The notes under the pieces were generated by a model. It was not told where the DNA came from, did no database searches, and was given only the letters and a program-made list of their open reading frames with translations. Below, one piece after another: positions 189 to 40,161 of a stretch of DNA of 64,000 nt (its first letter is position 1; the number at the start of each line of letters is the position of its first letter). A program made the position numbers and the translations under genes. Source of the stretch: Bilabrum cf. latius (lineage: Eukaryota); assembly GCA_965178125.1 (NCBI GenBank), contig OZ237749.1, positions 930,001 through 994,000 of the forward strand. The letters are read 5' to 3'.

Positions 189-3056
189 ATGCCTCGGACT
201 CGATCTGGGACGCGGTCATCGAAGGCAGATAGCCCGCATGCCGGCGCCAAGAAGCAGGCTCGTGGAGCACCGATAGATTTGCACAAGCAGCGCCGATTGG
301 TGGACTATGGCAAGTGTTTCAGAGCATTGAGGCATCCTGAGTCATGGTCATGCACCTAGTCCGGGACTACAGAGGATGTGGTGCTGCTGCTAGGTACTGG
401 ACAAGTGTCTAGCTACTCAGATGCGAGTGTGCCATCAAACGGTTGCCGCTTGGCACTGCGGCTGGGTGAACGCCCTTTCAATATCATTGACTTGACAGAT
501 GGACAGCCCATCGATGTCTCCGTCGAACGCACCGGTCTTCTCCAGAAAATGCGAATTCGCTGCGCTGCCCTCCAACGAACGGTGCTCGGGTCCGCGGCAG
601 GCACCGGGTTGGGCGGCAAAGAGAGCCCTTGGGAGCACCTTAGAAGGTACGTTAGGCTATTTAGCCTGCCATTCTTCAAGGCGGAGAGCCTTCGGAGGCG
701 CCGGCTCGACGACCTGCGTGCAGCTGCCGAGCTGGAAGAGGGCGAGCAATCCGAGGGATCAACCGCCAGTGGCAGTGGCGGCGAGTCTGAAACTGGGTCC
801 GCAGCTGCAGGAATGTCACAGGAAGACGAGCAGCTGCAGTCTGTTCTTGAGCAGGAGCAGGCCACGCTGAAGCGCATCCTCAAGAAGTCGACCGAATACC
901 GCCACGAGGCAGGCAGCAAGCGAGCCTCCTCCTCCTCCTCCTCCACCTCCTCTTCCTCCTCATCCTCGTCGTCGTCATCGGGGAAAGCGCCCAAGCAGGC
1001 AAGAGGCCCCACCCCGCCAGGATTCACGGGCCTCCGTAACCTCGGCAACACGTGCTACATGAACAGCACCCTGCAGTGCCTCTCGTCCTGCGTTCCTCTG
1101 AGGCGGCTGCTCTTCGCCTGGAGGCCGCCAATCGTCACGTCGTACGAGGAATACCTGGGCGGCATGGCGGCCACGGGGCAGCCGTACGGAATGTTTAGAG
1201 CTGCCTCCATCGGAATGCAAGATGGTGTCTCCGAGCCACTCGGCGGCGATGCGGGGCGGGGCTAGAGTGCAGGTGAGGCAGGTGAGGCAGCCGAGAGCCC
1301 CGCGCTGCAGGCGGTAGGGAACGAGGAGTCGGCGTCTCTGCTGACAGCGCCCAAGATGCTGCGGCTACCAAGTGAAGTGGTCAGGGCCTTTGAATTCGGC
1401 GGGGGACTCAGGGGCGGCTCCACGCCGGCTGCTTCTCTTGACGGCGCGGACAGGCCTGCATCATCTGCCCCTGCCCCTGCTTCCTCTTCATCCTCGTCCA
1501 AGGGGGACAGCAAGACCAGACAGGCCTCTACTGGCACCAAGTCGAGCATCGGCACAGACAGGGACTCGCAGAGAGACGTGCAGGGGTCAGACCTCGCGTC
1601 TGTACCCCTGGGCTCTGCAGTGCACGGGTCGCTCAGTCGCCTGTGGATGCCTGCCAGGCTACCCATCTACACGCCGCAGGCCCTCTTGTCGACGGTGTGG
1701 AGGAGCCTTCCGCGATTTGCGGGTTTCAGGCAGCACGACGTGGACGAGTTCCTGCGGGGCGTGCTCGAGCGGCTGGACGAGGAGCTGAGGGCAGCAGCGG
1801 GATTCGGTCAGGCAGGCAAGGGTGGGGCCAAATCTGGCTCATCCTCATCCTCGTCGTCGGCTGCGGCGGCTGCGGGCGGCCAAGGCGAGAGCGAGGCGCC
1901 ATCGACTCCCGTTGCGTCAATGTTTACACACGAGACGGTACGGAGGGTACGGTGTCGAGCGTGCGGGCACGTGTCGGCAACGAGGAGCTCTGCAATCGGG
2001 CCACTGCTCGTCGACATACCTGCCCGATTCTCGGGGCAGCCCAGGAGCAGGAGCCGGTCCAGGGCAGGGGAGGCGTGTACCCTGCGCAAGTGCCTCGAGA
2101 GCATGTGCGAGCCATCCGCGCTCGAGGGTGATTGCAAGTACTAGTGTGATTCGAAAGAGTGCAAGGGCACCAAGCAGGAGGCAGACATCTGGGTTTCGCT
2201 TGGCAAGCTGCCCCCAGCCCTGCCAGTCACGATAGTTAGGACAGAGTGGACCATGCAGGGGCGCGTCAAGAAGCAGACGCACGTTGAATTTCCGCTGGAT
2301 GGTCTGCAGCTCGCTGATTTCGACGAGAACGGTGCTGTTGGTCGAGGCCCCATGGCCCAGACGGCTGCTGGCAGCGCTGCCTCCAACGCAAAGGCAGGAG
2401 CGCACTGCAATAGCAAGGCGTCGAACAGCAACACCGTTCCGCCGGCTAGCGGCGGTGTCGAGACGAATCCCGAGTACTCGCTCGTTGCCTTGATCGAGCA
2501 CCACGGGAAGAAGCCGACATCCGGCCACTACACGAGTATCGGACGGCGGGACGCGTTGTCTGCCAGGCGACTGGCGAGCGGGAAGCGTGTCCTGAAAGGC
2601 GGCGAACAGTCGGACGCATGGGTCAATTTCAACGACGCCCGCGTGAAGGTAATCTCCCCCGACGTGGTGCGCAGCACTGAGGCCAGCATGCTCATGTACG
2701 TGCGCTCCGACCTCTTGTCTAGACCGAGGGCCTCGGGGTTGGCCGGGGAGCTGTTGCACAGAGCAGGCTTTGTGCTGCCACCGACTGCAACGGTGCTGCT
2801 GGATAAGACGGGGGACGGCCATGCAGACGTGGCCCTCACTGTGGCCCCGGGTGACGTGGACCAGCTCTCGGCCGAAGGAGCGTGGGGCGCACCGGTGTCT
2901 GACGATGACTCTGCTGCGGCAGACGACCAGCCACTTGGGGCAAAAAGAAAGAGGCAGGGTGTTGACGAGTCTGAGAGTGCGTCAGACGAGGCAGCTGGAA
3001 GCAAGCGATCATCAGGATCGGAGGGACGTGGACGGAAGGCTCACAGGGTGTCGTAA
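189..3056 (+). CDS. Ubiquitin-specific protease (USP/C19 family), ~955 aa, read through 3 TAG codons
   Basis: ATG 189. ORFs 378-1265, 1356-2144 and 2253-3056 share one frame, with TAG at 357, 1263 and 2142. Cys box GLRNLGNTCYMNSTLQCL, QHDVDEFL, His box HHG..SGHYT and WVNFND are spread over the three pieces. Ends TAA. Confidence 0.9.
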
Positions 3057-3215
3057 TTCGACCTAGGATCTCCCTGCCTACTGAGCGGGAATTCGGGGGG
3101 TTCTGGAGTCCGGTGGGGCTTGGGTGCACCAGCAAACATGTGGCTCGAAGCCAAGTACAAATTTGGTTTTTCACTGAGCGAATCCGTAGGATGTGTGCGC
3201 CTGGCACTTAACAAG

Positions 3216-6200
3216 TCACATTCGAGACCCACTTCGCTAGGAACGCATCGCCAATGCCTGCATGCGCAAAGAACCCATCGCGCCACCAGGTTGCGGTCTC
3301 GTAGAGGACCGCCGTATCGCATCCGATCGGACGGCAGAGGGGCGGAGAGCGCGGTCTGCCGGCGCAGTGGCCGTTCTTGAGCGTTCGCGTTGCTCATCGA
3401 AGCCAGCGCCGCCAAGCAGGCTGGCGCTGGAGTTCCCGCCCTGTGCTGCAATTCCGGCACGACCTCGGCTGGAGCTGGTCTGTTGCTGTGCACCTCCTGA
3501 GACAGCCCTGTTAGAGGCCTACCGGCGAGCAGCCTGCACTGTCCTGTCCCATGCATCTCTGCGTGAGCTGCCCGTAACCGCCCTAGCCAGCCCTGCCTGG
3601 ATCTCGTGATTCATTGCAGACTGCTTCCGAGCTCCCACCGTTCGCGCCGCCACCCTTAGCTTGTCCAACGGTGACACCTTGGCCGCTCCCGGCGACGACA
3701 GGCCGATTCCACTTGGAGGAGCGACTGCAGCGGCAGCATCTGCGTTCGCTGCACCGCCCCCATCTAGATGCAGCCTGGACGATCTTTGCCGCTGGTTGAC
3801 ACCCACACTGGCCACTGGTGCCCTTGGCCCGGACTGATCAGATTCGCCCGGCCCGCGCGCCGAGTAAAAGCTCACCCTGCCGGTGCGCGCGCGATCTACG
3901 CTCGCAATGTGTCCCCGTGGTCGCATAGACTGCCTCCGCGCCGCCTGCGCACCGAACACCTGCGTTCGTTGTTGCCCGGATCCAGCGGCCGCACTCTACC
4001 CTCCGAGCTGCGAACCTCCCCCTCCCAGTGCAGACTGTGGGGTGAGCCCAAGGAAAGCCAGCGCACGCTGCACTTGATCTGGAAGCAGCTTATATGGCGT
4101 GGGAATGTACCCTTCGGGCACTTCCCACTGCCTGGCTCGAGTCAGCACGTTGATGTAGTACGGCAGGCCAGTATCCGTGGTCAGCTGCCACCAGCACTCG
4201 GCTGGAAGCGTGCGCACGTCCGGCGGCCTGTTCCATTGCGTGATACCAAGCTATCGATTCACCCAGTACGGCACCTTGCGCAGGGGGTGCGACTTGCGCT
4301 TCCAGCTCCGCAGCACAGAGGACTGGAACTCGGCCAATTTCTCCACATCGCGTGGCTTCTCCCACTTGTTCTTCTTGCTCTGCGCGTTGTACCAGAAGCT
4401 CTCGTTCGTGGTCGGGTGTTCCCGTTGGATCCACAGGGCTGCATTTTGATGCAGGTCGGCGAGCTCGTTGAGCGTCTGCCGTGCAGTGGCCGTTGGTGCC
4501 ACGCTGACAAGCTCGCGGGCAGTTGCAGCTGCTTGCTGGGAGGCTGGCCCGGTCAGCAGTGGAGTCACGACTGCCATGGACAATCCCGCCGCAGTCCCGC
4601 TCGTGTATATGGAGGACCGTTCTCTATCTCTCCGAACGCTGGCAGTCACATCCGTCCTCGGACTCGCCGCGCTGCCTAGCTGCCGAGACTGCTCCGACAA
4701 GGATGGCCCCCTGCTGTGGCTATCCCCGGACTCCGCATCCATCTCGCGAACAGCACCCAGACGTCCCATATCTAGCCCAAAACTCGATGGCCGTGACTGG
4801 CGCTGGCCCAGCCCTGGGAAGTGCAGCCCGCGCCGCCCCGGAATCTCACCCCTGCCACTGACGCTGCGTCGGCGAGCTCCGACTCCCTCCGTACCTGATC
4901 CTGACTCGTCCCCTGTCTCGGCGCTGCCGCCTTCAGGTCCCACGTCAACCATGCCGGATATCATCGACCTCCGCGAGGACTGAGATCGCGTGCGGTATCC
5001 CGCGCGACGGTCCTGAATGCTGCCCGACCGCTGCCTCTGAATCCCGTCCACACCTGCACCTGCACCTGCGCCTGCACTGTCTCGACTCAGCATGGGGTTG
5101 TCCCTCATCCAAGCACCCAGGTCGCCCTCGTTCTCGCCAGTCCCACTTGCGCGACTCCCTGACGCCACCTCGCTTGACGCACTGGATCCAGCGGGCCGCG
5201 ACATGACACCCGGGTGCTCACTACCACTGCCAGCCCCGTCCTACTCGCGCATCTTTTGCTCCTGCTCCTCCTTGTCAACGATCCCTCGGCTGCGAAGGAG
5301 GTACCCTCTAGGTCCAAATCGAAACTTGCCACGAGCGTGCCCGACAGAGGCATCCCCACCGCGCACAGGCACCATTACCTGGCCCTGTGAGGAGCCTCCC
5401 TTCGGTGATACCCCTCCCGGCGCTTCTTTATATTCCTGCACGGCGGGAAGCGGGTCAACACCGGCCTGCCGCCCCCTGCGACCTCTCGATCGATTGAGCA
5501 TTGCGGCCAGCCGCTTCCCTTTCTTGAACTGAACCATTGCCTTGCGCTGGGCGATCGATCGTGCCGTTGCAGTGGCAGCGGCCTAAGCCGCCTGGGGCGG
5601 CCTGGCTGGCAGCGAGGCACTCCTGAACTCTGTGGCCGTCGAGGTGCTGGAAGCCGTGGTGCTGGCTCGGTGCCTGCCCAGCAACGGAGCGAGCTCTACC
5701 TCGCCCTCCGCGACCGCGGGAGCCGTGGTCATCTGCGGCGTGATGGCATCGGCCACGGTGCGGGCCCGTCCCCTCCTCCGCCTCGCCACTCGTGGCCCTG
5801 TGACTGGACCGGCTCCTCCGTCCACCGGTGTGGATCGGCCGTCTGCCTCTGCAGCTAGTTGCAGCGCGCCCGCATGCATCTCGTCGGAATCGCTCGTGCC
5901 GTCCTCTGAGTTGGCTGCGTCTTGCCCGGCGTGCTCTTTGGCCTCCTTTGCGGCGCCGAGGGCCAGCAGAAGCTGGTTCGGCTTCCACTTCTCTTCGTCC
6001 AGCTTGTGCCCCGTGAACACATTGTGCACCCCTAGCTCCTCGCCGTACCACATGCGGTTGAAGTCCAGCACGGGCAACACCCTGAATCCGTCCGAGCCCA
6101 CAACGCCCTCCACTCCGGCAGGCATCTCGAGTCCGTAGCTGCTCCTGCGCCTACCCCTGGTGCGAGCCGCCGTCATCTTGCGGGCCGGAAGCCGCGCCTG

Positions 6201-7952
6201 CGCCCGCTGGTCCTCGAGCAGCTGCAGCGCCTTGCGCACCCGCTCGGCCAGTTCTGCACTCCTGGCCGCAGCCACAAAGTCGTAGACTAAGATGGACAGG
6301 CACACGAGCACCACGGCAGCCACGAGCACCGCGATGGACACGGCGATGAGCTGCCGTACCACATCGGTGATCCCGCCCAGAGCGAGCAGCTGGCCCAGCA
6401 GCAGCACGAGGAGCGAGGTGATGATCGAGTACTGCTCAACCTGCCCCTACGTGTAGTCGCGGAACGGCTGCAGCTGCAGGTGCAGGATGAGCGCCGCGAG
6501 CTGAACCAGGATGCCGCAAAATATCTGGTGCCCGAACTCGTTGCCGCCAAGCATCACAGAGACTGCCACTAGCAGAGACTTTCTGGCCATAATCACGGAC
6601 TCGTAGTAGTACGTGTCGTTGCGATACCCCTGCGATAGTAGGAGAGCAGCGGATGGGATGACTCAGCAGTGCAATGCGGTGCACTTGGCGGGTCACGATG
6701 TGGTTCAATGAGATGGGAATGCGAGGGCCTGTGCGTGCCCGTGGTGCAAGTGCTTCTAGGCGAAGTCGCAATCGATAAACAAACTCACGCTGAACAGGAA
6801 CCAGACCCTCCTCCTGGCCTTTTCAGTGTCCAATCTGTCTCTGAACCTGTACATGATCAGGGCGCACACCACTGGGAAACCAACAGTAAACAGCACCAGC
6901 ACGCCCCAAGCGCCGTACGAGAAGCCCCTATGCAGGCTGGTATCGCACCGAAAGCTAACATCGGCTGCCAGATAGCTGATTCCGTCCACTTCCTCTGTGC
7001 ATCGAAGGATCTGCATTGCCGACGTGGTCACGGTGGGATAGAGCAGGAACAGCAGGAGGAGGGAAACGGTCGTGTACAGGGACAGTGGAGACACGGAGCA
7101 CAAAGTAAGGGGGATAGGTACGTAGTCTGGGTCCTTGGCAGCCATGTCTGCCTGCCCCCAGCGGTGGCAATCCACGATGGTGCGGATGGCAATCCCGGGC
7201 AGGATGGTGATCACGGGCACCGCACAGGAGAGCGCCATGAACCGCAGGTAGGGAGACCACTGCAGCGCGCAGTCCGCAAACGAGGCATCCAGGCTGAAGG
7301 TGCTCGTGGTGGATACTCCTTGGAAGAATCCAGAGATGGCGTTGGGCCACTCGAGCTCGAAATCGTTTAGCAGCGCCACTGTCGAAGCAAACGTCAGCAG
7401 GATTTTGAGCGTCATTAAGCTCTCGCGTCCGGACGTTCCAGGCCTTCCGCCCGCACTGGGATCTCCAAGAGGGTTTTCCAGCCCCCCATCAGCGGGAGGC
7501 TGCACCGTTTCGGCCCTGGACCCCAGCGTCGTGATGCTGCCTCGGCGGACGGAGGCCCCTTCCAAATCCGATGCCGGCGGTATAGACAGTCTGGACGACT
7601 TGCGATTCCTACCTTGTCTAGACGATGCCAGTCCCCGCAGTATCGTGAAAGTAATGCCGCACAAGACGCTACCGCTGATAAGCGCTACGAGTGCGATCGA
7701 TAGCGCGCTTGACGGGCACCTTGAACAAGTTGGCCTTGACCCGACATTTCTGCCATACCCGTCAAGGCATCCAGCGCACAAAACATCATCGTATCCGTCC
7801 GCGCAGTCTGTCTCCAAAGTGGTTTCGTTGAACAGGCACGCAGCTGGATTCAAGCATCGCACCGGCGACCATCCAGGCGGTCTACCCTCCAACGCAAGGC
7901 GAGCGGCCGTAGCGTTTGTCCAGAAGTAACCATCAAATAAAACATCGCTCAT
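3216..7952 (-). CDS. Multi-pass membrane protein with Cys-rich N-terminal segment, long disordered cytoplasmic tail and three WW-like domains (~1500 aa; start uncertain)
   Basis: ORF 6756-7952 is spliced (intron 6630-6788, FLFS|GYRND) to one frame that continues through TAG at 6447, 5583, 5241, 4251, 3996, 3519 and 3237 to TGA at 3216. WW-like repeats W..(F/Y)(W/Y)xN...W..P at ~4100-4445. Confidence 0.75.
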
Positions 7953-8145
7953 CGTTGGTGCATCGCTGATGGCATGAAACGGAAGCTGTCGTCCTTTCGG
8001 GCGCGATCAGCCGGTCACCAGCTGGCAGTGCGGTGCAGCCGGACATGCGGTCGCAACTGTTCGACGGAAATAGGCTTGGTCGCGCTCTGGTTCGAAGTTC
8101 GCACTAATTAGAACACTCGCAGTACTTGACGAAGTAAGGTACTCA

Positions 8146-11100
8146 TCAGCTTCTTCGGCATGCCACTGCTTCGTCATCCGAGTCGGCATCTGCTGCACGT
8201 GCAGGCGCCGGCGCTGGGCTGGCAGCACCAACAGCCGATGCAGGCTGAGGCTCCTCCTTGCTCCCGCTTCGAGCCCTGTTCCGCGATCGGTGCCTGCGGC
8301 TGCTCGTGCGTCGCCCCGCAATGGCACCCCCATCATCATCATCGTCCTCCTCATCGGAACCGCCGGGCCCCACCCCCATCCCAGGCGCACCCCCCCCTAG
8401 CGAGCTGCTGCCAAGTGAAGCCACAGAGGCCGCCCCAAGCCCGTGCAGCCCGTCCGTGCTACCCTCGCCCTGGCCGGCACCAAACAAAAGGTCGGGGCTG
8501 CGGCGAGCAGGGCCCCGGGGAACACGCTCACCGGCGTGGTCGTCGAGAGACACCGACACCGAGCCGGACACGGACACGGCCGCGCCGCTGCCCTGCCTAC
8601 CGCTCGAGTCCCCAGCGGCTGGGGCAGCAGCATCTCCGGCCGCAGCCCCTGTCCCTATCCCTTGTCCCTGCCCTGTTTGCAGCCCCGCCCCCGCCCCCAG
8701 CCCGCCAGCGCTCCCTCCAGCACCCCCACGCCCACCCTCCCCGTCCCCGTCCCCCTCGAATTCGAGCCGACCGCGCCCGCTCGCCGCCCTTGCCACACTG
8801 GCCGCCAGCTCGTCCGGGTCCTCCTCCACCTCCTCCTCCACGGGAGGCCTCTCTGCCACGCGCCGGGCGGGCGCCTCGTCCTCGTCGGTGCCGAGATCCG
8901 TCGAATCGTCCGTTCCCACCCTGGACACTAGCTGGTCGATGTCTCGAGGGCGGGCAGGCGTCCTGCCAGCCCTGCCCGACTCTGGTGTCTGCGCCCGTGG
9001 CTCCAACTCTCCCTGCGCATGCGCCTGTGCCCCGGTCTAAGCGTGCTCGGCGACCGCTGCCAGGTCGAGGTCGAAGCTGGCCACCGCTGGTGCGCCGCTC
9101 TCCGTGCGTGCCTTCCGTCGGGCGGCAGGCAGGTCCGAGTCGGTGCGACGGTGCATGGAGCGCTTCGGGGGCGGTGTGGAGCTGCTGGAATCGGGGTGGT
9201 TGGCTTCTCCTGGGGCGCGAGAGCCGGGCCTTGCCCTCGGTTTGGCCACTGCGTCATTGTCATCATCATCATCCGAGTCCTGCTCCACGATGGGCCCCTG
9301 TTCCTGTGCCTTGGCCATCGGGGGGTTGGCTGCTGCCATGGGCTCCACCCTCGTCGTCTCTGCAGCGCTGGACGTTGTTGATGGCACTGGTGCTGTGCCA
9401 CGCGCGCTTGAACTCGCTGCATTCGAGTCGTGAGGGTCCGGAGAGGCCGCGGATCTGGACACCACGCGGCGAGCAGCAACCATGGGGGAGACGGGTGGGG
9501 ACTCCTAGCTCTCGGTGGACAACAGCGCCCCGGCACCTCCGTGTGAACGCGCCCCTCCTGTCTGGCCCGCGGCTGCGGCACCACTTCCGCTTCCACTAGG
9601 ATCGCCAGCAGCCTCCCCATCGCTCGTCCGCTCCCCGTCCAGCTGCGATAGATCCACGCTAGTATCAAGCTCGTCCGCAGCACGACCAGAACCGTTACGG
9701 TCCTGATCCGCCCCACGGCTGTCGCGTGCCCCTACGGCGGCACCGCCGGGTGCAGCAGCAGCAGCCGGATCCCCCGCCCGGCCAGGCCCCTGATCGCCCG
9801 CCCTCTCGCCTCCGCCCATCATTTCAAGCGCATGTGTCAGCGTGGCGCCACCTGAGCTGCCCTCGGCCTGCCCCTGGGCCCCGCTCCTCTCCCCTCCATC
9901 CCCACCTGTGCCTCCTTTCCTCTTCCCGCTGAAGGTTCTCCGCATGGCCCTCGTCCACTCGCCGCTGCCGAAAGACGCACCGACACCCCTGCTGGAGGAC
10001 CCGCCCCGGTGCTTCGGCTCAGCCACGTCCTCCGCCGCCTTGTTCAGCTGCTCTTCCACATCCTCAGGGAACACCCACGTGGCACCGGGCAGCAGGCTCT
10101 CGCCCTGCCCCCTCCGCTCCTAGTCTGCCACCTGCGCCAGCGCGGCTGCCACGGTCGGCGGCACGTGCGGCTGTGCATGCGCATGTGTGCCCGCCCCTAC
10201 CGACGGATCAGTGGCCCGTGCATCGGCCCTGCCAGGTGCCACCGCGCCTCCCGTTGTTGCAGCAGATGTAGCGGAGGGCAGCGAGGGCCCCTGCTAACCA
10301 CCAACAACAACCCCGCTGCCGCCGTTGCCGCTACTGCTACTGCTTGCCGACCTCACGACCTGGGCAGTGGTGGCGGAGAGCGCCATGGCCTTGTCGATGG
10401 CGAGGCTGGCAGCATCCCGGATGGGCCCTCTGCGGCTGCCCGTCTCCCTGCCCCGCCCCACCCCGCTGCCAGATCCCTTGGAGCTCCCCCCAGCTGCACC
10501 AGTGCTCCCTCCTGCTCGTGCACGGAAGGAGACCCCTCTAGTGGGCCCCGACCTGCGGGGACTGCCACCTGTCGACTCGGGTGCCGCTGCTGCAGCCACA
10601 CCGGCGTACAGGTGCTTGTACAACGGCACGTCAAGCTCTGCGCTCACGCTGTCTGCCCTACCCCTGGTGCTGCCCGCACGCCCACTTCCAGCCCCAGCCA
10701 CTGCTCCTGCTCCTGCACCTGGGGCCTGCACCACGCCCTCTGCCCCGCTCCCCGCACCGATCGCCTGCGCCTCGGCGCCCTCCACGGCGTCTTTAGCCAG
10801 CCTGAGCGCCTTGCCAACCACGTCCTCCGTAGGAATATCGGGCACGTGTTCCCTGAGCTCTGCCAGGAAGGCGCCCTCCTCCGGGGCGCTCGCGATGAAG
10901 GCGTGCCGCAGGAGGGCAGCCGCGGAGGGACGGTCCTCCGGGCTGTAGAGGAGGGCCTGGTGGACAAAGTCGCGGAATTTCCTCGAGAACTTGGAGGGGT
11001 CCGCCACGCCCTTGACTCCTTGGTACGAGTCGAAGGAAGGCGGCTTCTTGGTGAGCAGTCGCACGAGCACGTCCTCGCTGTCCAGGTCAGAATAGGGTGC

Positions 11101-11983
11101 TCTCCCCATGGCCAGCTCCAGGGCGGTGATGCCCAGGCTCCAGATGTCCACCTTGCAGTCGTATCCCTCCGCCGTGTCCAGGACCTCCGGTGCGATGAAG
11201 CACGTGGTGCCGACCAGCGTCCTCGTCTTGCGCTTGAAGGCCTCGGCCACGGGCTCCCTCAGCCACTGGGACACGCCAAAATCGGCGATCATCGGCCCTT
11301 CCCTGCCGTCGAGGAGCACGTTCCCGCCCTTAATGTCTCGGTGGATCATCCCGGCGGCATGCAGGTACTGCAGGGCCTGCAGCGAGGCGCGCATGATGGC
11401 CGCCACCCAGCGCTCGGGAAGGCCGGGACCGCACAGATCGGCCTTCACCGCTTCCGGACTCTGCGCAGATCTTGTAGCAAGGCGTCGCATGACCCTTACT
11501 GCCGACCCTTTCCGCATCATGGGCACGACCACCCAAAGTGTGTCGCGCACAGCGAAGGCGCAGTTGCACGGCAGCAGGGCAGCGCACCGGCTGCTGCGCA
11601 TGATCGCTACCTCTGTCTGCAATTAGGTCAGCATGGAAGCACAGTGAACAACAGTTGCCAAGACGAGGCCTCGGCCACCAGAATAGTGCGGTTCGCAGCT
11701 TTCTCTCACACCGACAGACTCCACTGGAACCTAGATGTGCTCGAGTGCCATGATTTTGATCGCGCATTCTCGCTTTAAGCTCAAGCAGTATGCCTAATAC
11801 ACCTATCCATACGAGCCCTGCGAGGTAAGGCGTGCTGTCGAAGCTTAGGGCGTGTATTCCCCTGCACATCGTGCGCTTGGCAACTTGTCCAATCATCGTG
11901 CAGCTCACCCTCCCTATCCTTCGTCCAAACGCATACTCTCCCGGTGTCACGGGCCACAACTCATCTCTATAGTCAACTGCCAT
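8146..11983 (-). CDS. STE20-family Ser/Thr kinase (OSR1/SPAK/fray-like) with long acidic disordered tail, ~1217 aa
   Basis: Introns 11818-11908 and 11617-11709 give IGR|GSYG*VY*A...CAIK. HRDIKGGN, DFG and APE are intact. TAG at 11803, 11794, 11731, 10294, 10120, 9505 and 9037. Ends TGA TGA. Confidence 0.88.
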
Positions 11984-12156
11984 TCTGAATCTACCAAAGA
12001 GGCGTTCTGTATGCCGTTCCAGACGCTGCTTTCGGAAACAGCTTTTTGATTCCGCTAGAATCGGCGCCGCGCTGATAATTCTGATTAAAAAGATAATTGT
12101 AACGAGTGCATCGAGCTGGACGGATCGAAATCCGTACAATTGGCACCTGTGCGAGT

Positions 12157-14592
12157 ATGCAGGTTCAATATTCGGCCGTTTCACCTCCAAAGCTTGCCGC
12201 AGCAGTATCGTATGGGCTGGGAGTGAAGGTTGATTTTAAGAAGGCGAAAGGATCCGCAGCTACGGCCGCACCTGTTCTGGCAACCAGCGACGGGTAAGAA
12301 AAGTAGTCAGGCCATCCCTAGCGTTGCAGCACACAACACAGGGCATCGCGCGTTAGTTTACGTTTTGTTCTTTCAGTCAATTGCAGGTCATTCGTAGCTG
12401 GCGATGCTGCTATCGCGAAGGCGATCTGCCGCAGGGCCGGCGATGTTGGCCAGGCCTTCCTTGGGCAAGCCGGTACTCCCTCAGCCGCTGACGGTGTTGA
12501 CTAGTGGCTCGTCCTCGCTGATGTTGTTCCATCCCTCTCTAGCGCGGTCGAGACGGTTGCTGCCCTCGAAGCGACCCTTAGCAAGCGCACTTACCTTGCA
12601 GGCTACAGCCTGACGCTTGCCGATGCCGCCATGGCGCAGGCTCTGCGATCCAGGAGCGATGCCTCTCTGCCCGAGGCGACTGCGCGGTGGGCTAGCATGT
12701 GCGACGACCGATTCTCGCTCGCAAAGGTGGACCAGAACTTCCCCGCTGGCGGCGAGGCGGCGGCTGCAGCTGCCGGCAAGTCTAAGGGCAAAGGCAAGGG
12801 CAAGGGCGCGGCCTCTGGAGCGGGCGCTGGGCAAGCAGGAAAGGGCAAGGGCAAGGGTGGCGGGGGTGCGGCTGCCGCAGCAGGCGGCAAGGGCAAGGGC
12901 AAGGGGGGCGGCAAGTCCATCTCGGGGTTGACGGGCGCGGAGGAGGGCAAGGTGTGCACGCGATTTCCCCCGGAGCCCAGCGGGTACTTGCACATCGGCC
13001 ATTTGAAGGCTCTGTTGCTGAACGAGCACTTTGCACGGTCGTACGGTGGCAAGCTCCTGATCCGGTTCGACGACACCAACCCGTCCAAGGAGCGCGGCGA
13101 GTTCGCAGAGGCGATCCTCGAGGACATCGGGCGGCTGGACATCCGGCCCGATGCGGTCTCTCACACCTCGGACCACTTCGCGCTCATCGAGGAGTGCGCC
13201 CGCGGCATGATCCGGGAGGGCAAGGCCTACATGGACGACGCCCCGCAGGACGTCATGAAGATCGAGAGGAGGAACGGGATCGAGTCGGTCCACAGGCAGG
13301 CAAGTCCCGAGGAGAACATGGAGAAGTTCGACCTCATGCTCTCGGGGGGCGGGCCCCAGTGGTGCCTCCGCGCCAAGATGGACATGCGGGACCCCAACAA
13401 GGCATGCAGGGACCCGGTGCTCTACCGCGCCAACGACGAGCCGCACATCCGGTTCGGCAGCAAGTACAAGGCGTACCCCACGTACGACTTTGCGTGCCCC
13501 ATCGTCGATTCTCACGAGGGCGTGACCCACGCGCTGCGTACCACCGAGTACAGGGACCGGGACAAGCAGTACCACTGGATGATCAAGGCGCTGGGCATGC
13601 GGCACGTGCACATTTAGGAGTTCTCCCGACTTAACTTCCAGTTCACGCTCATGAGCAAGCGCAAGCTGACGCAGTTCGTGGCCCAGAAGCAGGTGGAGGG
13701 CTGGAGCGACCCCCGCTTCCCCACGGTGCGCGGTATGCTACGGCGCGGGGTGCAGGTCAAGGCGCTCAAGGACTTTATGGTCATGCAGGGAGGCAGCCGA
13801 AGGGACGTGGACATGGAGTGGGACGTGTTCTGGAACGCGAACAAGAAGGTGGTGGACCCTCAGGCGCACCGCTTCTTCGCCATCGTGGCGGAGGGTGCCG
13901 TGCCCGTGCGGCTGTCCAACGGGCCGGAGGGCGTCGAGGTGGGGCGCGTGCAGTTGCATCCCAAGCACCCCGAGTACGGGCACAAGGCCATGCCGCGCAC
14001 CAAGACGGTGCTCATCGAGGCCGAGGACGCAGCGACCGTCCAGGAGGGGGAGGAGATCACGCTGCAGCGGTGGAGCAACGCCATCATCCGGAAGAAGAAC
14101 CTGAGGGCAGACGGGTCGATCGAGAGCATCGACGCCGAGCTCAACCGCGGGGGCGACTTCACCGCCACCAAGAACAGGATCTGCTGGGTGGCCTCTGGGC
14201 CGGGCGCGCAGCCCACGCCTATCGAGGCCGTGGAGTACGACTTTTTGATCACCAAGAGCAAGCTGGAGGAAGGAGACAACGTGGACGACTTCCTGAACCC
14301 CGTGACCATGGCCGTGACTCCCATGCTGGGTGAGGCCGCGCTGGCGGGAGCAAAGGAGGACCAGGTGCTGCAGCTGGAGCGGAGGGCCTACTACAGGGTG
14401 GACAGGCCGCTGGTGGACGAGCGAAGGCCGCTGCGGCTGGTGCTGGTGCCAGACGGGAAGACCAAGAAGACCTCTGCTCTCAGCTCGGCGATCACGAGGA
14501 GAGATGTTGCAAAGCAGAGGGACGCGCAGGCGGCAAAGGGGGGCGCCGGGGACCGGGCGCCCAAGAAGGGTAAGAAGGGCGCGGGCAAGTGA
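12157..14592 (+). CDS. Cytosolic glutamyl-tRNA synthetase with N-terminal GST-like domain, ~780 aa
   Basis: Intron 12294-12386. GST-C-like VD*WL...RTYLAGYSLTLAD, then RFPPEPSGYLHIGH, RFDDTNP, YPTYDFACPIVD, MSKRKL, WSDPRFPTVRG. TAG at 12502 and 13615. Ends TGA. Confidence 0.95.
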
Positions 14593-27604: not shown

Positions 27605-30600
27605 TCATGCGAGCACGTGCGCCCCCGTCCGCACCACGTGTACCCCGGGCTCGAGAGTGACAACCGCGTACTGCTCGTGCGGCTGCTCGAGCTCCAGCTC
27701 CACCTCGCCCAGCCTCTGGCCGTCCACCTCAACCCTCCTCCGAGTCGGTTCGCTGCCCCTGCTGGCCACAGGGGCATACACCACCGCCCTGCAGCTGCCG
27801 GGAACCTCCACCCGAACGCTGAACCCAGCGGGTGCAAGACCGCTGGCACCGCCCGTCCTCCTCCCCAGCTCGCCCGGCTCCTGCTGCAGAGTCTGGTTCA
27901 CGTCGACAGGGATGGGCCCTCGGATCGAGGGAACAACTAGGCTTGCCCTCGTCAGCGCGCCCAGCTGAGGCCTGACTTCGAAGGTGGCAAATCCCGGCGC
28001 GGTCGCCTTCACCCCCATCAGGTACTCCGCCACAACCCACACCAAAGGGGCCCCCCACGGGTGCGAGAAGGTGAGGTTGGGCTTCTCGCTCGGGTCCCAC
28101 GCCTCCATGCCAGCGGTGGCATTGAGCGACAGCTGGTGCAGCCACGAGTGGGGGCCTGCAGCCGCCATGAACTTCACACCCGCATGCCCGTGGTCAGTCA
28201 CGTTCTAGAAGAGCACCGTCAGTGCCCACGGGCCCAGGTACACGCCGCCCACGATGCCGTCCTGCTCCTCCATGCGCCGCAGCACCATACCCCGGAGAGC
28301 CGCCTGCTGCTCCTCTTCAAGGCCGTCGGCCAGTCCGTGCAGCATGGCAAACACAGTGCTGTGCCAGGCCTGGTGCGGGGTACCGGCTCCATCAATGAAG
28401 CCGTCGGCCAGCTGCTGCTCTTCTTCTTCACCCTCCCTTCCGGGGTCCGGCAGCAGCAGCGTTTGTGCTGCCCTGCGCATGCGAGATGCCGCTGCCGCCG
28501 CCCTGTCAGCGTCCTGCGAGCGGTTGAGTGCCCTGGCAAGCGCCTCGAAGCTGACGAGGGCACGGTAGCTGAACGCGTTTACCACCGTGTTCTCTGGACG
28601 GTACACGAACCCGTCCCTCAAGTTGGATGGCCAGTCGATCTCGGGTCCGTTGCAGCTGAAGAGCGTCACGTTCGCGGTGCAGTGCTCCACTCGACTGAGA
28701 CCGCCACACGGTGGACAGGACCACAGACCAGAGGACTGGTTCACCAGCGCCGTCCCTGTCCAGTTCCTCAGGGTGGCGTAGTGCCTCTCGGCTAGGTCCA
28801 GCAGCCCCGTCCTCATGTAATCCTGGTAGGTCGAGATGACCATGATCATGGGCCACTCGGCCGCCCGGGGCCCGCCCCAGCCCCGCTGCTGGATGCCGTA
28901 CTCGAGCGACTGCCGCTGCACCATGAACTCGAGCGAGGAGGCCCAGCCCATGCGGCTGTTGATGTTGATGTTCTCGCCGCACATCACGTCTCGCTGCCTG
29001 GTGTTCGAGTCGGTGAACATGTCGATGGTGGTGGTCACCTGCGTGTCCCGACTCAGCCCGTGGACCCTTGTCACTGCCTGTGCCAGCGTGGCATTTCCAG
29101 ACTCCGCCTCGAACTCTGTGCCGGTGTAGTCGGCATCGTACCGCACTCGCCAAGCAGAGATGTTGAAGGAGGACGCGGGAGGCGGGGCCTGCTGGGATGC
29201 ATTCAAACCGGGCAGCACCCGGATCCTCGCGAACCGAAACTCGGAGTACTCGTGCTGGGTGAACCGCTGGGACCCCGCCCTCAGCGTCCACTACTCGTGG
29301 TAGTCGTTGCCCGTGTGCATGGGCACCTTGAGATCCCGGGGCCAGGCTGTGCCCGGCAGTAGGTCCTCGGTCATGGACACGTCCAGGACGGTTCCCTCAC
29401 TTCCGGGCGGGGCATCCACAGCCACGTCCATGCCGCCCATGAACTCGAGGCCGAAATCGACGAACAGGTCCAGGGTATGCGACGAGGGGTACTGACGGAT
29501 GTCCTGCGGCTGCAGACCGTGTGTGACGAGCACGTTGTTGCTCGGTCTCGGTCGCAGCGGGGCCCACCATCCTGGCGCAGGCACGGCCTGCTCCCACGAA
29601 GAGTCGTTGAATCCCGCCTGCCGCCAGCCGACGGGCTCCTGCCTTGCGTCGAAGTTGTCGTGCGGCTGGTACTGGTCCTGCTTGTAGGCCGAGGCGCAGC
29701 ACGATGGGTTAAAGTAGTCCGTGGCGTTGTACGCCTTAAATGAAGGCCCTGATCCGACGGAGATCCTGGTCCCGTTCCGAAGCACCAGGTCTAGCTGCAG
29801 GAGAACCTTGGGCGGGATAGGCCCGTCCTCGCCGTAGTTCCTGGACATGTACGTCTGCAGGGCCACGACCATCGTAGACGGTGCAGAATCGCTGCCATCT
29901 TGGGATCGTTCAGCCTGAAGCTCGCCCTCAAGCTGCCCCTCTGTGCCCCAGGGGCCGATTGCGCCGTCTCCCTTCTCTGCACTTTGTCCCGGCACCTTCA
30001 TCTGCGCCTGCTCACTGGCAGGCCTTTGCCTCCCTGCACTGGCGCCCTGGGTCACCAGCGCAGTGACGTCATACACGTCATAGAGGTGATGGGGCTCGCA
30101 GGAGCACTCTGTGGTCGCGTCTTGGATGGGGCACACGGGGCCGCAGGTGGACACCCGGCCGGGACCCATCCCCACAAGGGCACCGTCGAGGTACAGCTTG
30201 TACGAGGCGAGCAGCTTGGCGTTCTGGACGCCGCTCCCGTGGGTCGTCTGGGGGTTGGCGGTGATTCCCGCGAGGGCAAGCACGACGTCTTGGCGGAACG
30301 ACACCTCGATTTCCCTGCGGAAGAGGACGAATCCGTCGGCGCCCTCCATCCACATGGGAGTGGATGTGGCTGCATCGGGCTCCCCTGACCAGCCTGTCGT
30401 GAAGGAGGCCCAATCGCTCCATGGCAGGCACTCTCCGCGAGTCATGCACGCAGAGACTCTCCATTTGTAGGCATGCATGGCCTGCAGCAGGCCTTCGCTG
30501 ATCACAAGATCCGTTGAGGGCGCTGCAGATGTGCCATTCTGCTCTAGCAATATCTTGCCCGTCACAGAATCAGCCAGCTCAAGGCCGAATGATTCTTGGT

Positions 30601-30784
30601 CCCCGTGGCCGCTCGGTAGAGCCCACGATACAAAAGCTGAGCTTGTGTTGGGCTGAACTGGGCCGTAGCTACGAAGATTCGTCAGCAGCTGAAATGGAGC
30701 ATCTTGGCTATCCAGTCGCGATGCCTCGACTCTAGACTAGTGCACGACACCAAATATCGCAAAAAGACTCGAGGCCACCCGCAT
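27605..30784 (-). CDS. Alpha-L-rhamnosidase-like glycoside hydrolase (GH78), secreted, ~1059 aa
   Basis: LYLDG..VG.GP, YDVYDVT, FDARQEP.GW..AGFNDSSW, FVDFGLE, FTDSNTRQR, EAWDP...SHPWGAP, LMGVK..PGF. TAG at 30737, 29291 and 28205. No intron. Ends TGA. Confidence 0.85.
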
Positions 30785-30885
30785 GCAAGAAAAGAAATGG
30801 TCTGGAAGGATCGGAGTTGCACTTGGGCGGCGCCGGTTCCAACCTCCCGCTGCGATCTCATTGTACTTCACAATAGCACGTAGCT
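30785..30885. promoter_or_regulatory. Probable bidirectional promoter between GH78 and GH28 genes
   Basis: Only 101 bp separate the two divergent ATGs. No specific motif identified. Confidence 0.5.
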
Positions 30886-32256
30886 ATGACCTCTATGTGT
30901 AGGATCGCCATTCTTACTGCTTGTGCTTCGAGTATGATGGCCGAGTCGAAGCGTTGCGACGTCGTGGTTGACTGCAAAGCGGACGCGACAAACGTCAGCA
31001 TCTCGACATCACAAGTGTAGGCCTGTGTAAACGAATGCTTGCATGGAGGAGAGGTTTATATCCCCAACAATGCCGCAATTCGCATCAGCTCAATCGATCT
31101 TACGGGAGCATCCGACTTTGCGCTGACGTTTGGGCGAAATGCCTCGCTGAATGCTGTGCAGGACCCGTCCCTGTACCCGCTGGTCCCCTTCCTGCCGTTC
31201 GGCGAAAAAACGAGCTACAGGCCTATTATTTACGGCTGGAATGTGACAAATGTAACGATCGCCGGCTCGGAGCAATGGGCTGCGTTCTCCGAAGAGCCGC
31301 CGGTGCTGAACGGCGCAGGAGGCCCATGGTGGTTCAATTTTACAAAGGGAGTGCTCAAGTACAACCGCCCGAAGCTGATAGAACTGGCCAATGGAACGCA
31401 GATCACCATCAAGGATCTGCACCTGCGGGACTCCCCCAACTGGACCAACCACGTGTACGGGACGTCTGGCGTGAAGTTCAAGCGCCTCCTGGTGACGGCC
31501 CCTCGCGCCGTGGGGAACACGGACGGCATCCACCCGGAGTCGTGCTCGCACGTGCTCATCGACAGCTGCCACGTTGACGTGGGCGACGACGCAATCACGC
31601 TCACCTCCTCGGCTTGGCCCCACACGGACCGCTGCTCGGCCACCCGGCACGTACTCATCACCAACTCGACGCTGCTCTCTAGGAACCTCGCCATAGGATC
31701 GCAGACGTTCTGCGGGGTGCACGACGTGCTCGTGCAGGGGGGCCGCATCGGGGACGACGGGAACGCGCAGGGGATCGGCTCCTCCCCCTGGGCCTTCAAG
31801 ATCAAGCAGCACCAGGACCAGGGGGGTGACGTGTCCAACGTCACTCTCGACGGAGTGAGGGTGGGCCGCATCACGCCCAACCCGTGGCAGCAGAAGCATG
31901 GAGGTTGGTTGGTCACCGCCTACATGAACTACGGCGAAGAGGGAGAGGAGGGAGGGGCGACGGAGGGGCCCCGCTCCCAGCACGCGCACCCGTGGGGCCT
32001 CGCCGATGATGACGAGCCCGCCCCCGCCCCTCCTCCGACCATCCGGGATGTCACGCTGCGCAACATTGTCGTGACGAGCGCGATTTATCCCGCCTCGCTG
32101 ACGGGCCTCCCGTCGTCGTACATCTCAGGCATCACCTACGACAACGTCACGATCCTCGACACGCAGCACACGCAGCCTTGGAGCTGCCACTACGTCAGGA
32201 ACACCACGGTCATCAACTCGTCTCCTGGGCCTGCACCCGGCACCTGTGGGACATGA
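30886..32256 (+). CDS. GH28 polygalacturonase-like glycoside hydrolase, secreted, 456 aa
   Basis: Signal peptide, DSPNW, NTDGIHPESC, VGDDAI, AIGS, FKIK. TAG at 31018. Ends TGA. Confidence 0.88.
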
Positions 32257-36046: not shown

Positions 36047-36596
36047 ACTGCGATACGGACCGCATACTGGCACATAGTTGTCACTTATTAAAACGCGGGA
36101 CAGAGAACCCCACTGCCTGCCTTGCCGCTGCCGGGAGTTCACGCATGTGTTGCTGCTCATTGCAAAGCATCGAGAAATCGAGCACCCCTACGACGCATAT
36201 TTCACAAGCTACTGCCTAGATCGGCGAAGTATTATTCGATTCATGCGCAGTGTATGGGCAGATAATCCACCTAACGTGTCTGGTAGCCTCACCTTTTACA
36301 AAGTGTGAGGTGTCTGCGATTTTCCCAAAAGCGCACGGTACAAAGGCTACGAGTCGCGCGCGGCGCGCGCGTAGCGAGTGCAGAAAGAAAGGCAAGGGAG
36401 TGACTACCCTCCTCACAACAGCCACATTTCAGCTTCAGGTGAGAGAATTTTATGCTTTTTCTCAGATGCCCTCCGGTGAAAAGGCTGGTCAGATCGTGCT
36501 ACTGGTAGCATTCCTGGTCACAACGAATGCAGTCAACCGTTGCATTGCCAGAATACCACGGCTTGCACCCACTTACGACTCGCAGGAATCGCTCGA

Positions 36597-38666
36597 ATGG
36601 CTAACTCAGGTTCAAGTCTAGGAAAAGCAGGAGCTGCTGCACCGCAAGCTGGTTTTGCTTCGGGCCCGAATCCGATGGCGCCCTCTAGCAATGCCGGCAC
36701 TACAAAGCCAAAGGAAGAGGACGACAACAGGCGGTCTTGCTCGACCTTGTGCTTCGTCATTGCAGGAACTGCTACGATCGCAGTGTTCCTGGCCATTTTC
36801 GTCGGCCTGGCATTTGGCCTCCCAGACGACGACGACGACTCCGATGAGAACAACGGACAAGCTTCTTTCGATGACTTGGTGTCGCAAGGGTCCTGCCCGA
36901 CGAATCCGCCACCCGCTGTGATGCAAAGTTCTACAGCAGAGTTCTTTGTTTCTGTCGAGTTCCCTCTGGCAGCTGGATACTCGGACGGGTGCGCATCTGA
37001 TTCGTTCCCCATCGAGCAGGCCGTCACCGCATCGGTCCCCGCCCCACCGGATCTCATCTTCATCGCCCACCCAGCGCCAGAGACCGTGCAGATCACCATA
37101 ACGCACCAGACTCAGTCCGATGCTGATGGGTCGGCTGCCGCGCTGGCCGACCCATCTGCGGTAGCATCAGTCGCTGCCGCCATCGAATCGTCTATGGCCG
37201 GTGCAGACGTGCTCGAGGACAGCATCGGGCAGCCAGTCACTGGGAGGATTCTATCTACTGCCTCTCCTCAGACAGACGACATGGGAGGCCCGGGAGGACC
37301 CGGTGGGCCGAGCACGGACGACACGGGCAGCGGCAGCGGCGGCGGCAGCGGCGGCGGCAGCAGCAGCGAGCCCGACGCAGGTGACTCTGGGAGCTTCGCT
37401 TTCCCGCCCGTGCGCAGCACCTTCATCAACGAGCTCTTCCCGGTGGCAGACGGCAAGGTGGCAGTACTGGCGCGACAGTCATCCAAGGGCGTCTGGGCCT
37501 CGATGGACCCGCAGGCGGGCACGATCGAGTTCGAGGAGCTGCTGACCGAGCGCTTTACCACCACCATCCTGGACGGGGGCATGGGGCCCTTTCAGGCCGT
37601 GCTCGATGGCAAGGTGTACTTTGGAGGGAACGGCACCGACTCGACCGGCACAACGTCCGGCATGGAGCTGTGGTCTTACGACGGCGAGACGCAGGAGATG
37701 GTGGCCGACATCTACCCGGGCTGGGAGTCCTCCGAGCCACAGGCACTCATCGCGTTCGACAACAAGATCGTGTGTCAGGCCACAATGCCCAACCCGGGCG
37801 CGAGCTTCGAGTTCCCAACGCTGGTGGTGTACGACCCTACGACGGGCCAGGCGGAGCATCCGTTCCCCGCCTCGGACACGGCCAACTATAAGAAGTACTA
37901 CCAGAGCGGCTCCGTGCACAACGGCAAGCTATACATCAAGTACGGGAACCTCGCATTCGTGTGGACCGGCACGGGAGCCCCGACCAGCCTGCAGGCCGCA
38001 GACAGCTTCTACTCGTTCGGCGCGAGGGTGTTCGGGTCGCAGAACCAGTACACGTACGAGATCGACCAGACCACGGAGACCTTCACTCAGCTGCAGCAGG
38101 TCGAGCTGAGGTCGGCATTTACGGCCAGCGGCAAGATGGTGGGACGGTACATCGAGCCTCAAAACGACTACGATGAGTACATCTACGTGTTCGACGAGGC
38201 GCAGGACACCTTCAACCCGGTGGTGCAGGTCAACTCGGACCAGGGGATCGAGGGCAGGGTCTCGCAGGACACCGAGGCCGTGTTCGACGGCAAGTACTTC
38301 TTCGCTGCAGGCTCTGGGACAAGCTGGCCGCTGTACATGTTCGACGGCACGGGGACTCCCACGGCGGTGGGGCAGCAGGCCGCGTTCACGTCCAACATCG
38401 GTGCTTTGGTCTACATCATGTCGGTCACGTCTAACGGGCTCTACTTCAAGCCAACGGTGGGTCAATTCAGCGCGGATCCCTCAGAAGCAGTCCCCCAGGA
38501 CTTCATCGCCATCCGGGCTGGAGGCGTGATCGAGGTGGTCGATGTGGGTGACATGAGGACCTCCAGTCTGGTCAGCGAGGTGCACGGAGTCGAGTACATC
38601 GGTGGCAGCGTTGAGGAAATCAGTGGTTTGGACGCGGCAGTTGTCCTCGCGCTGGATGCTCCCTGA
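36597..38666 (+). CDS. Type II membrane protein with ELWxxDGT-like beta-propeller repeats
   Basis: Single TM helix near the N-terminus. KVYFGG...GMELWSYDG...MVADIYPG..SSEP and KYFFAA...LYMFDGT. No intron, no TAG. Ends TGA. Confidence 0.75.
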   Translation: MANSGSSLGKAGAAAPQAGFASGPNPMAPSSNAGTTKPKEEDDNRRSCSTLCFVIAGTATIAVFLAIFVGLAFGLPDDDDDSDENNGQASFDDLVSQGSCPTNPPPAVMQSSTAEFFVSVEFPLAAGYSDGCASDSFPIEQAVTASVPAPPDLIFIAHPAPETVQITITHQTQSDADGSAAALADPSAVASVAAAIESSMAGADVLEDSIGQPVTGRILSTASPQTDDMGGPGGPGGPSTDDTGSGSGGGSGGGSSSEPDAGDSGSFAFPPVRSTFINELFPVADGKVAVLARQSSKGVWASMDPQAGTIEFEELLTERFTTTILDGGMGPFQAVLDGKVYFGGNGTDSTGTTSGMELWSYDGETQEMVADIYPGWESSEPQALIAFDNKIVCQATMPNPGASFEFPTLVVYDPTTGQAEHPFPASDTANYKKYYQSGSVHNGKLYIKYGNLAFVWTGTGAPTSLQAADSFYSFGARVFGSQNQYTYEIDQTTETFTQLQQVELRSAFTASGKMVGRYIEPQNDYDEYIYVFDEAQDTFNPVVQVNSDQGIEGRVSQDTEAVFDGKYFFAAGSGTSWPLYMFDGTGTPTAVGQQAAFTSNIGALVYIMSVTSNGLYFKPTVGQFSADPSEAVPQDFIAIRAGGVIEVVDVGDMRTSSLVSEVHGVEYIGGSVEEISGLDAAVVLALDAP

Positions 38667-38854
38667 GTTCTGAGTGGATCGGTCGTGCTCCATCGGTTCC
38701 CCATCCGTAGTCCGGACAGACCTAGACCTGTGTTGTGCATGGCTCATCGCTGATTGGCGCTTCAGTGGCCGAGTGTGGACCTCGTGAAGTGCGGTGAATC
38801 GAGCTCATTTGCTTGTATTGATGCGGTAGAAACAATGCCTGGTGATGCCATGCC

Positions 38855-40161
38855 TTACGAGCCCTTCCCATCGCCACTAGCACTGGCACTGGCAGCACCA
38901 CCCGTCGCTGCCCCGCTCCCGCTCCCGCTCACTTTCGCCAGAGCTGCCTCTACTGGGGCATCCTTCACTAGCTTGGGCACCCCCTCCGAGGGAACAAGGC
39001 CGCGCCTGGGATGCGCCACCAGCGCCGACTCGATGTCCCCCCAGTTGCCGCTGTTGTCTCGGTACCACTCCACGGTCCTCTTGAGCCCCTCTTCCCACGT
39101 GACCTCCTCCACCCAGCCCAGCTTCGCGAGCCTGTCCGTTTCCAGCGGATACCTGAGGTCGTTGAACAAGCGGTCCTCCACCGTGACAATCCACTCCTTC
39201 TTGGCCTTTTCCTTGTCCCCCCCGCACTCGTCCACCTTGCCCATGAGCCCCAGCAGAGTCTCGGCCACGACCAGGTTGGACAGCTCGTTCCTGCCCCCGA
39301 TGTTGTACGTCTCGCCCACAGCGCCCTTGTGCAGCACCACGTCAAAAGCAGCTGCCACATCTTCCACGTACAGGTAGTTCCTGGTGTTGGACCCGTCCCC
39401 GTGCAAAGTGAGTTTCCGATCGCGGAACAGCTGGTTGATGAACTTGGGAATGATCTTCTCGGGGTACTGGTGGGGCCCGTACACGTTGTTCCCCCGAGTG
39501 ATGATCACTGGAAGGTGAAACGAGCGCTAGTAGGCCTTCACTAGATACTCTGCGCCGGCCTTGGTGGCTGCGTACGGGTTAGTCGGCTCGAGGATTGTCT
39601 TTGTCTCGTGGCTCTTGGCTCCCGTGGCACCCTCGCCGTACACCTCGTCGGTTGACACATGGATGAACACCTTCAGCTGGCTACCTAGGCTCTTGGCTGC
39701 CTCTAGCATGACATGGGTTCCAAGAACGTTGCATTCCGTAAAGCTAAAGCTATTTCCGAACGAATTGTCTACGTGTGTTTGCGCAGCAAAGTGCATGATG
39801 GTGTCAATCCCTTCTTTGTGGAGCACATATCGCACCAGGTCAGCGGATCCGATATCACCTTTGACGAACTCGTAGTTCGGCTCGTCGGCTATGCTTTCAA
39901 TGTTTTTGAGCGACGCGCAATAATCTAGTCGATCGAAGTTTACAATCTTGTACTGAGGATACTTCCTGACGAGTCGCATCACCACATGGGAGGCGCTGCG
40001 AATTATATATATATAGTAGTATGCAGGCTAAGACTAGGCGACGACAAACACAAGATAATCTTGGGTCTCGGCATAAACACTCACATAAACCCGGCACCTC
40101 CAGTGATTAGGATCCGTCGTTCGAATCCGTCTGTTTTCGCAGGACTTGATGCACTCGCCAT
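38855..40161 (-). CDS. UDP/dTDP-glucose 4,6-dehydratase (rhamnose biosynthesis; RHM N-terminal/TGDS-like)
   Basis: ILITGGAGF|IASH (intron 39996-40084), HFAAQTHVDNSF, STDEVYG, YAATK, TRGNNVYGP. TAG at 39527 (VKAY*RSF). Ends TAA. Confidence 0.93.

Follow-up and report, generated by a model that had tools for sequence, protein, structure and literature searches.

The window analysed here, a 64-kb stretch of contig OZ237749.1, is nuclear DNA of a eukaryote with a G+C content of 62%. It holds about 22 protein genes, most of them long open frames interrupted by a few short introns, and the Pfam assignments include a ubiquitin-specific protease (USP), a glutamyl-tRNA synthetase (GluRS), kinases, an MFS transporter, an M1 aminopeptidase, a nucleotide-sugar 4,6-dehydratase, a kinesin and glycoside hydrolases, among others. 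The subject of the analysis is the genetic code of these genes, in which TAG occurs frequently within the reading frames and TAA stands at the end of two of them. The GluRS has its top named match in Cafeteria roenbergensis (59%) and clusters with Cafeteria in a single-gene FastTree phylogeny with a support of 0.90, the dehydratase matches Bicosoecida sp. at 65%, and the best hits do not point to a ciliate; on this thin single-gene evidence of the GluRS tree and the best hits the source organism is probably a bicosoecid-related stramenopile. A second organism enters the comparison through L001, a 10.3-kb metagenome contig of a relative that is syntenic with the window at 35.5-48.5 kb.

With TGA and TAA taken as the stops, the 24 raw long open reading frames (ORFs) contain 92 in-frame TAG codons, or 87 after trimming at the introns shown by RNA-derived contigs. 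Once the 5′ untranslated and intronic parts are removed, and three TAG in exon 2 of a kinase gene and three in a small additional gene are included, approximately 78-82 TAG remain in coding sequence. An earlier, sequence-only reading of the window had counted about 83; the large number of internal TAG is thereby borne out, with the figure itself slightly revised. The codon lies within the conserved domains of both the GluRS and the dehydratase, and the residue found there in close relatives is glutamine. At the dehydratase site, the proteins P0121 (96% identical) and P0122 (87%) both have Gln, and the corresponding codon in L001, which is the DNA of the P0122 relative, is CAG. The L001 contig also carries an orthologue of the giant ORF of the window, with 2,164 codons, 17 TAG, no TAA and a terminal TGA, which shows that at least one related lineage has the same TAG usage. 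Across 25 orthologous sites with TAG on one side, the partner is Gln in eight, while ordinary Gln codons in the same alignments are conserved at 41%, and in a likelihood comparison over the 25 sites Gln is the best residue, 6 log10 units above Glu and at least 8 above Lys, Arg, Asp and His. Finally, the USP fragments P0243 and P0275 from two relatives break off immediately ahead of a Gln that the window encodes as CAG, as would be expected if a standard gene caller had cut them at TAG. TAG is therefore a sense codon for glutamine.

The more distant homologues present a different picture and bear on the possibility that TAG stands for another amino acid, such as Glu, Lys or an aromatic residue. 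The solved GluRS structures have Trp, Tyr and Tyr at the TAG site and the dehydratase structures have Phe, Tyr and Thr, while among 120 GluRS homologues Trp is the commonest residue with 57 occurrences, followed by His (28), Gln (25), Ile and Val (4 each), and Ala and Asp (1 each). These positions are variable, however, and the three closest relatives, at 87-96% identity, have Gln at both sites, which together with the likelihood values given above makes any such assignment extremely unlikely; an aromatic meaning, which the solved structures had suggested, was dropped on the same two grounds. The aminopeptidase N structures, with Thr or Ile at the TAG site, are uninformative on the meaning of the codon, and the 35-residue kinase exon had no match among solved structures.

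Four public sequencing runs, coded X1, X5, X6 and X7, were compared with the window; the covered part is positions 1-20000, and the end of the dehydratase gene falls outside it. The contig of the DNA run X1 spans 1-20000 unbroken with the introns retained, whereas the contigs of X5, X6 and X7, which come from two studies other than that of X1, splice out five short GT..AG introns (11617-11709, approximately 11817-11908, approximately 12293-12386, 18728-18841 and 18879-19005). Because they skip introns that are kept in the DNA contig, these three runs are rated as similar to complementary DNA (cDNA-like), although they are listed as guessed RNA only, no run is recorded as RNA and X5 is flagged as probably DNA. 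The intron-skipping contigs still read TAG, so neither RNA editing nor an artefact in the DNA accounts for the codon. The wider possibility that the TAG codons represent assembly errors, decaying pseudogenes or sites edited away in RNA can be given hardly any probability: no point was found in its favour, none of the four runs shows a single mismatching letter within 1-20000 where covered, the genes undergo splicing and have retained long open frames, and the same TAG usage recurs in the independent metagenome contig of the relative.

The kinase, GluRS and MFS transporter genes give clean products after removal of the introns shown by the contigs, and further introns were predicted where GTGAG/GTAAG..YGCAG sites recover sequence shared with homologues or connect two frames. 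In the GluRS gene the raw ORF is bounded by a TAA at the junction of exon 1 and the intron, and the spliced product begins MQVQYSAV. The three TAG of kinase exon 2 belong to the exon of the kinase N-lobe. Two of the predicted GT-AG introns, at 6630-6788 and 60285-60522, would join in frame a DUF7630 exon to the WW gene and a HAUS-like exon to the kinesin gene, respectively. In the Lys/Gly-rich linker of the GluRS (12784-12915, with GKGKGKG repeats), chimeric joints are frequent in all four runs, as are loose ends of other contigs, and both reflect a low-complexity repeat common to many genes and no real rearrangement.

The absence of TAA from reading frames that were themselves cut at TAA would be a circular result, and the non-circular test is given by ORFs with TGA at both bounds. 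The 15 such ORFs comprise 11,012 codons with 61 TAG and no TAA, along with 110 CAA and 377 CAG. If TAA encoded Gln at the CAA:CAG ratio, 17.8 TAA would be expected in these codons (probability of observing none, 2e-8), and 23.5 would be expected at the off-frame rate. The triplet itself is available, since off-frame TAA occurs 2.1 times per 1000 codons and three TAA are present in the 518 nucleotides (nt) of RNA-shown introns. Wherever a TAA forms the upstream bound of an ORF, it belongs to an intron, shown or predicted, or to a 5′ untranslated region. Over the 64-kb window and the 10 kb of L001, to which the count of zero in-frame TAA applies, TAA is thus not a sense codon, and the sequence-only statement that TAA is never internal although CAA is used stands.

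Both genes that end in TAA provide evidence that the codon is a genuine stop. In the USP gene, the C-terminal fragment P0241 of a relative, which like the other USP fragments came from a profile-free search of representative proteins, ends at most two residues from the window's TAA. The frame read through that codon is 107 codons long and scores -0.18, a value equally low in just 1.2% of same-length coding windows, so that it looks non-coding. No match at E <= 1e-5 came from a word-index search in which the USP C-terminus was extended by the read-through. The next in-frame TGA, at 3378-3380, is located beyond the end of the USP contig and inside the convergent neighbour, whose stop is at 3216-3218 and whose contig spans 3167-6384; the earlier prediction that a read-through would run into this neighbour is accordingly correct. 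In the dehydratase gene, L001 has TGA at the alignment column of the TAA, which represents a stop-for-stop replacement, and the 30 codons of read-through score -0.03 and resemble the sequence found past TGA stops. The sequence-only reading had cautioned that neither TAA end was anchored by a conserved C-terminus; the orthologues and the RNA-derived contigs largely remove that concern, and what stands of it are the low-complexity tails that precede both codons. According to the present gene models, 22 genes end in 2 TAA and 20 TGA. Both TAA ends reported earlier are retained, while the earlier count of 21 TGA ends changes, as two apparent ends are probably intronic (in the DUF7630-WW and HAUS-like-kinesin genes) and two TGA-ended genes were added (the CREG-like gene and that at 16364-16813). 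TAA is therefore a stop that closes two genes, in what is a small sample.

The same observations bear on the possibility that the organism uses the ordinary code 6, with TAA and TAG both encoding Gln and TGA as the sole stop, in which case TAA would be missing from the frames through GC-richness and the two TAA ends would be chance occurrences followed by read-through to the next TGA. TAA is indeed rare on both strands (152 and 148 triplets in the 64 kb), and it ends only 2 of the 22 genes, each time past a low-complexity tail. The raw ORFs, however, contain 155 CAA against 641 CAG, so that CAA makes up 19% of the two codons and about 18 in-frame TAA would be expected where none is seen. Moreover, the relative has TGA at the column of the dehydratase TAA, both read-through frames score as post-stop sequence, and that of the USP would overlap the coding end of the convergent gene and outrun its own cDNA-like contig. 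Code 6 in its usual form is consequently very unlikely.

A further explanation concerns UAG itself, which could be ambiguous, being read as Gln internally and, depending on context, ending translation close to the 3′ end of some genes, UAA and UGA being plain stops. Two genes would suit this idea. The WW gene has a TAG seven codons ahead of its TGA, and the six codons in between score -0.31, which is non-coding-like; in the Sel1 gene a TAG precedes the TGA by 17 codons, and the tail, with a score of 0.07, is ambiguous. The longer tails after the last TAG, on the other hand, are coding-like, with scores of 0.28 for 32 codons in the Aurora gene, 0.20 for 49 codons in the kinesin gene and 0.31 for 25 codons in unk6. 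There is also no accumulation of TAG towards the 3′ ends, the counts by ORF decile being 14, 9, 11, 11, 7, 7, 11, 5, 3 and 9, and no gene requires TAG as its stop. A dual role of UAG seems improbable on this evidence, if somewhat less so than code 6.

Taken together, the data make it very likely that the window is written in a variant nuclear code in which UAG encodes glutamine and UAA, which is rare, and UGA, which is dominant, are the stops. The proposal of the sequence-only reading that UAA and UAG are split, with UAA remaining a stop, is thereby upheld by the lack of in-frame TAA where about 18 are expected, the stop-for-stop TGA of the dehydratase and the evidence at the USP end. Several points weigh against this reading, to which the missing Gln signal in distant homologues and the short tail of the WW gene described above also belong. 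First, where 10 or more of the 21 flanking positions are identical in the alignment of the giant ORF, only one of nine TAG partners is Gln. Next, just two TAA ends are present in 64 kb, and both follow low-complexity tails. The homology of the dehydratase stop with that of L001 is given by the alignment column and not by conserved residues, and the ends of P0121 and P0241 are known at the protein level. The end of the USP contig before the next TGA is only a weak hint of the RNA end, as contigs do not define RNA ends. Finally, the mechanism in terms of tRNA and eRF1 that is considered below is wholly inferred.

Table 1 Positions of the genes, exons, introns and codons on which the analysis draws, counted from the first letter of the window.
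Feature	Positions	Strand	Basis and remarks
USP gene, 955 residues	189..3056	+	Pfam UCH, 1-254 of 254 profile positions, E 1e-40; three in-frame TAG; ends in TAA
USP TAA stop	3054..3056	+	Sequence read; fragment end of relative; read-through score
USP 3′ untranslated stretch	3057..3183	+	X5 record 8 spans 984-3183, ending 127 nt past the TAA
Kinase intron, 93 nt, GT..AG	11617..11709	-	Holds the TAA bounding the main kinase ORF; joint in X5, X6 and X7, absent in X1
Kinase exon 2	11710..11816	-	Three in-frame TAG (first bases 11805, 11796 and 11733); flanked by two introns shown in X5, X6 and X7
GluRS intron, 93 nt (position +/-1)	12293..12386	+	Two TAG of the raw ORF inside; joint in X5, X6 and X7
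GluRS in-frame TAG, catalytic domain	13615..13617	+	Gln in the 90% identical relative P0001; TAG unchanged in cDNA-like contigs
Small Lys/Gly-rich gene, 149 residues	16364..16813	+	Codon-usage scan; three in-frame TAG; ends in TGA; cDNA-like contigs over 16240-16885
Dehydratase TAA stop (NDP-sugar 4,6-dehydratase)	38855..38857	-	Shares its alignment column with the ends of P0121 and P0122; TGA there in L001
Dehydratase exon 2	38855..39995	-	Pfam GDP_Man_Dehyd, E 9e-60; one in-frame TAG at 39527-39529
Dehydratase intron, predicted, 89 nt, GTGAGT..TTCGCAG	39996..40084	-	Two TAG of the raw ORF inside; sole splice restoring GGAGFIASHVV of homologues
Dehydratase exon 1	40085..40161	-	Starts MASASSPAKTDGFERRILITGGAGF
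CREG-like gene, main exon	40555..41032	+	Pfam CREG_beta-barrel, E 2e-29, in both the window and L001
Giant ORF, 2,590 codons	41582..49351	-	TGA on both sides; 17 TAG, no TAA

Some further features of the window were observed along with these. The 3′ untranslated regions seem to be very short, with convergent transcripts that meet or overlap (14590-14625 and 3167-3183): the GluRS contigs end 14-33 nt past the TGA and the contig of the convergent methyltransferase gene begins at 14618, while the contigs of the USP and WW genes share 17 nt. The small Lys/Gly-rich gene at 16364-16813, which was missing from the gene list of the sequence-only reading, has a short structured-looking C-terminus and a fairly high depth in the cDNA-like runs. 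The CREG-like gene ends with an exon encoding EIWMIDFFGG...SREV, followed by TGA near 41300, and this exon is conserved in L001. A candidate for a third TAA-ended gene, the ORF at 40432-41265 on the minus strand, was rejected as spurious, the conserved gene at that position being the CREG-like gene on the plus strand, which is TGA-ended in both organisms. The 729-codon ORF at 36480-38666 on the plus strand is without a Pfam match and free of in-frame TAG, against about three expected at the rate of the window, and the syntenic L001 has no counterpart to it between the dehydratase and M1 aminopeptidase genes; it may be a recent gain, or the relative may have lost it. Lastly, the region 22156-32256 holds a run of carbohydrate-active genes of bacterial type, comprising a LamG/ConA-like gene, an ORF of 816 codons with unknown product, a GH78-like alpha-L-rhamnosidase and a GH28 gene. 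As all of them carry in-frame TAG, these genes, if acquired by transfer, would either have been in the genome from the code change onwards or have adjusted to it.

Among the known codes, NCBI table 6, in which UAA and UAG both encode Gln, is used by many ciliates, by Hexamita, by dasycladalean and other ulvophyte algae, and by others. It shares with the window the meaning of UAG and UGA as the main stop, whereas its defining in-frame UAA is not encountered here and UAA instead closes genes. A close parallel is the fornicate Iotanema spirale, for which Panek et al. 2017 (PMC5304391) describe UAG as Gln with UAA and UGA as stops, with UAG alone reassigned, no in-frame UAA, and an inferred tRNA-Gln(CUA) and altered eRF1. 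The two cases differ in that Iotanema belongs to an unrelated lineage, while the GluRS tree and best hits are stramenopile-like here; in that the window is GC-rich with UGA dominant and UAA at 2 of 22 gene ends, whereas UAA is described as the dominant stop in the two taxa of that study; and in that genomic DNA and spliced cDNA-like contigs were at hand, compared with a transcriptome only (PMC5304391). The same change, UAG to Gln with UAA retained as a stop, is recorded in PMC11687900 for ciliates, namely Protocruzia tuzeti and, in two instances, phyllopharyngeans, and these cases demonstrate repeated origin. They belong to the group best known for code changes, which, judged by its best hits, does not include the organism of the window. 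The novelty of a split between UAA and UAG that the sequence-only reading implied was thus overstated, as PMC5304391 and PMC11687900 already contain a UAG-only reassignment to Gln in Iotanema, Protocruzia and phyllopharyngean ciliates.

Other codes that separate UAA from UAG, as described in PMC11687900 and PMC5304391, include UAG as Leu in the rhizarian exLh and some ciliates, UAG as Ser in Scotinosphaera, and UAA as Lys with UAG as Glu in Oligohymenophorea sp.; they involve a different amino acid, Gln being favoured here, and UAA is not reassigned at all in the window. The context-dependent codes of Condylostoma, Parduczia and Blastocrithidia (PMC5304391) are alike in translating a standard stop codon within genes, but in the window no codon is demonstrably dual, with TAA never internal and TAG never required as a stop. 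Full-text literature searches, with subscription journals and supplements outside their reach, found no stramenopile or bicosoecid case, and such a report may exist. The window therefore appears to represent a known, rare kind of code change in an apparently new lineage.

The probable mechanism follows the reasoning in PMC5304391. UAG would be read by a tRNA-Gln with the anticodon CUA, which would be unable to pair with UAA and would probably have arisen from tRNA-Gln(CUG) via one anticodon change, while eRF1 would have lost recognition of UAG and kept that of UAA and UGA (PMC5304391). That eRF1 must tell UAA and UGA from UAG is a sound inference from the code as read here. An Rfam scan at gathering thresholds and ARAGORN with introns allowed detected no tRNA gene, and no other Rfam family, in either the window or L001, and the eRF1 gene is not within the 64-kb window. 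Beyond the single genome, it can be proposed with about even chances that a bicosoecid-related stramenopile clade, comprising at least the organism of the window and the relative with the 87-88% identical dehydratase, independently evolved UAG as Gln with UAA and UGA as stops, and that this is the first non-standard nuclear code in stramenopiles. If so, the reassignment would have arisen in a GC-rich genome in which UAG is expected to be a common stop and UAA is nearly disused, contrary to the prediction of simple codon capture by disuse.

For annotation the practical consequence is that standard gene callers cut the proteins of this organism at every TAG. Public collections have the proteins of the lineage only as TAG-cut fragments (P0243, P0275, P0241 and P0001), and metagenome annotation of these organisms is consequently systematically broken.

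For the evolution of the genetic code, each independent origin is a test of how eRF1 can come to ignore one purine-ending stop and still recognise the other, and of whether tRNA-Gln needs no more than one anticodon change. Since genomic DNA is here accompanied by public runs of spliced, cDNA-like sequence and by at least one related lineage, the tRNA and eRF1 changes would be readable from the whole assembly. The route of the reassignment is likewise informative in view of the composition, which is GC-rich with UGA dominant and UAA rare but functional, and UAG is unlikely to have been a rare codon at the time of its capture.

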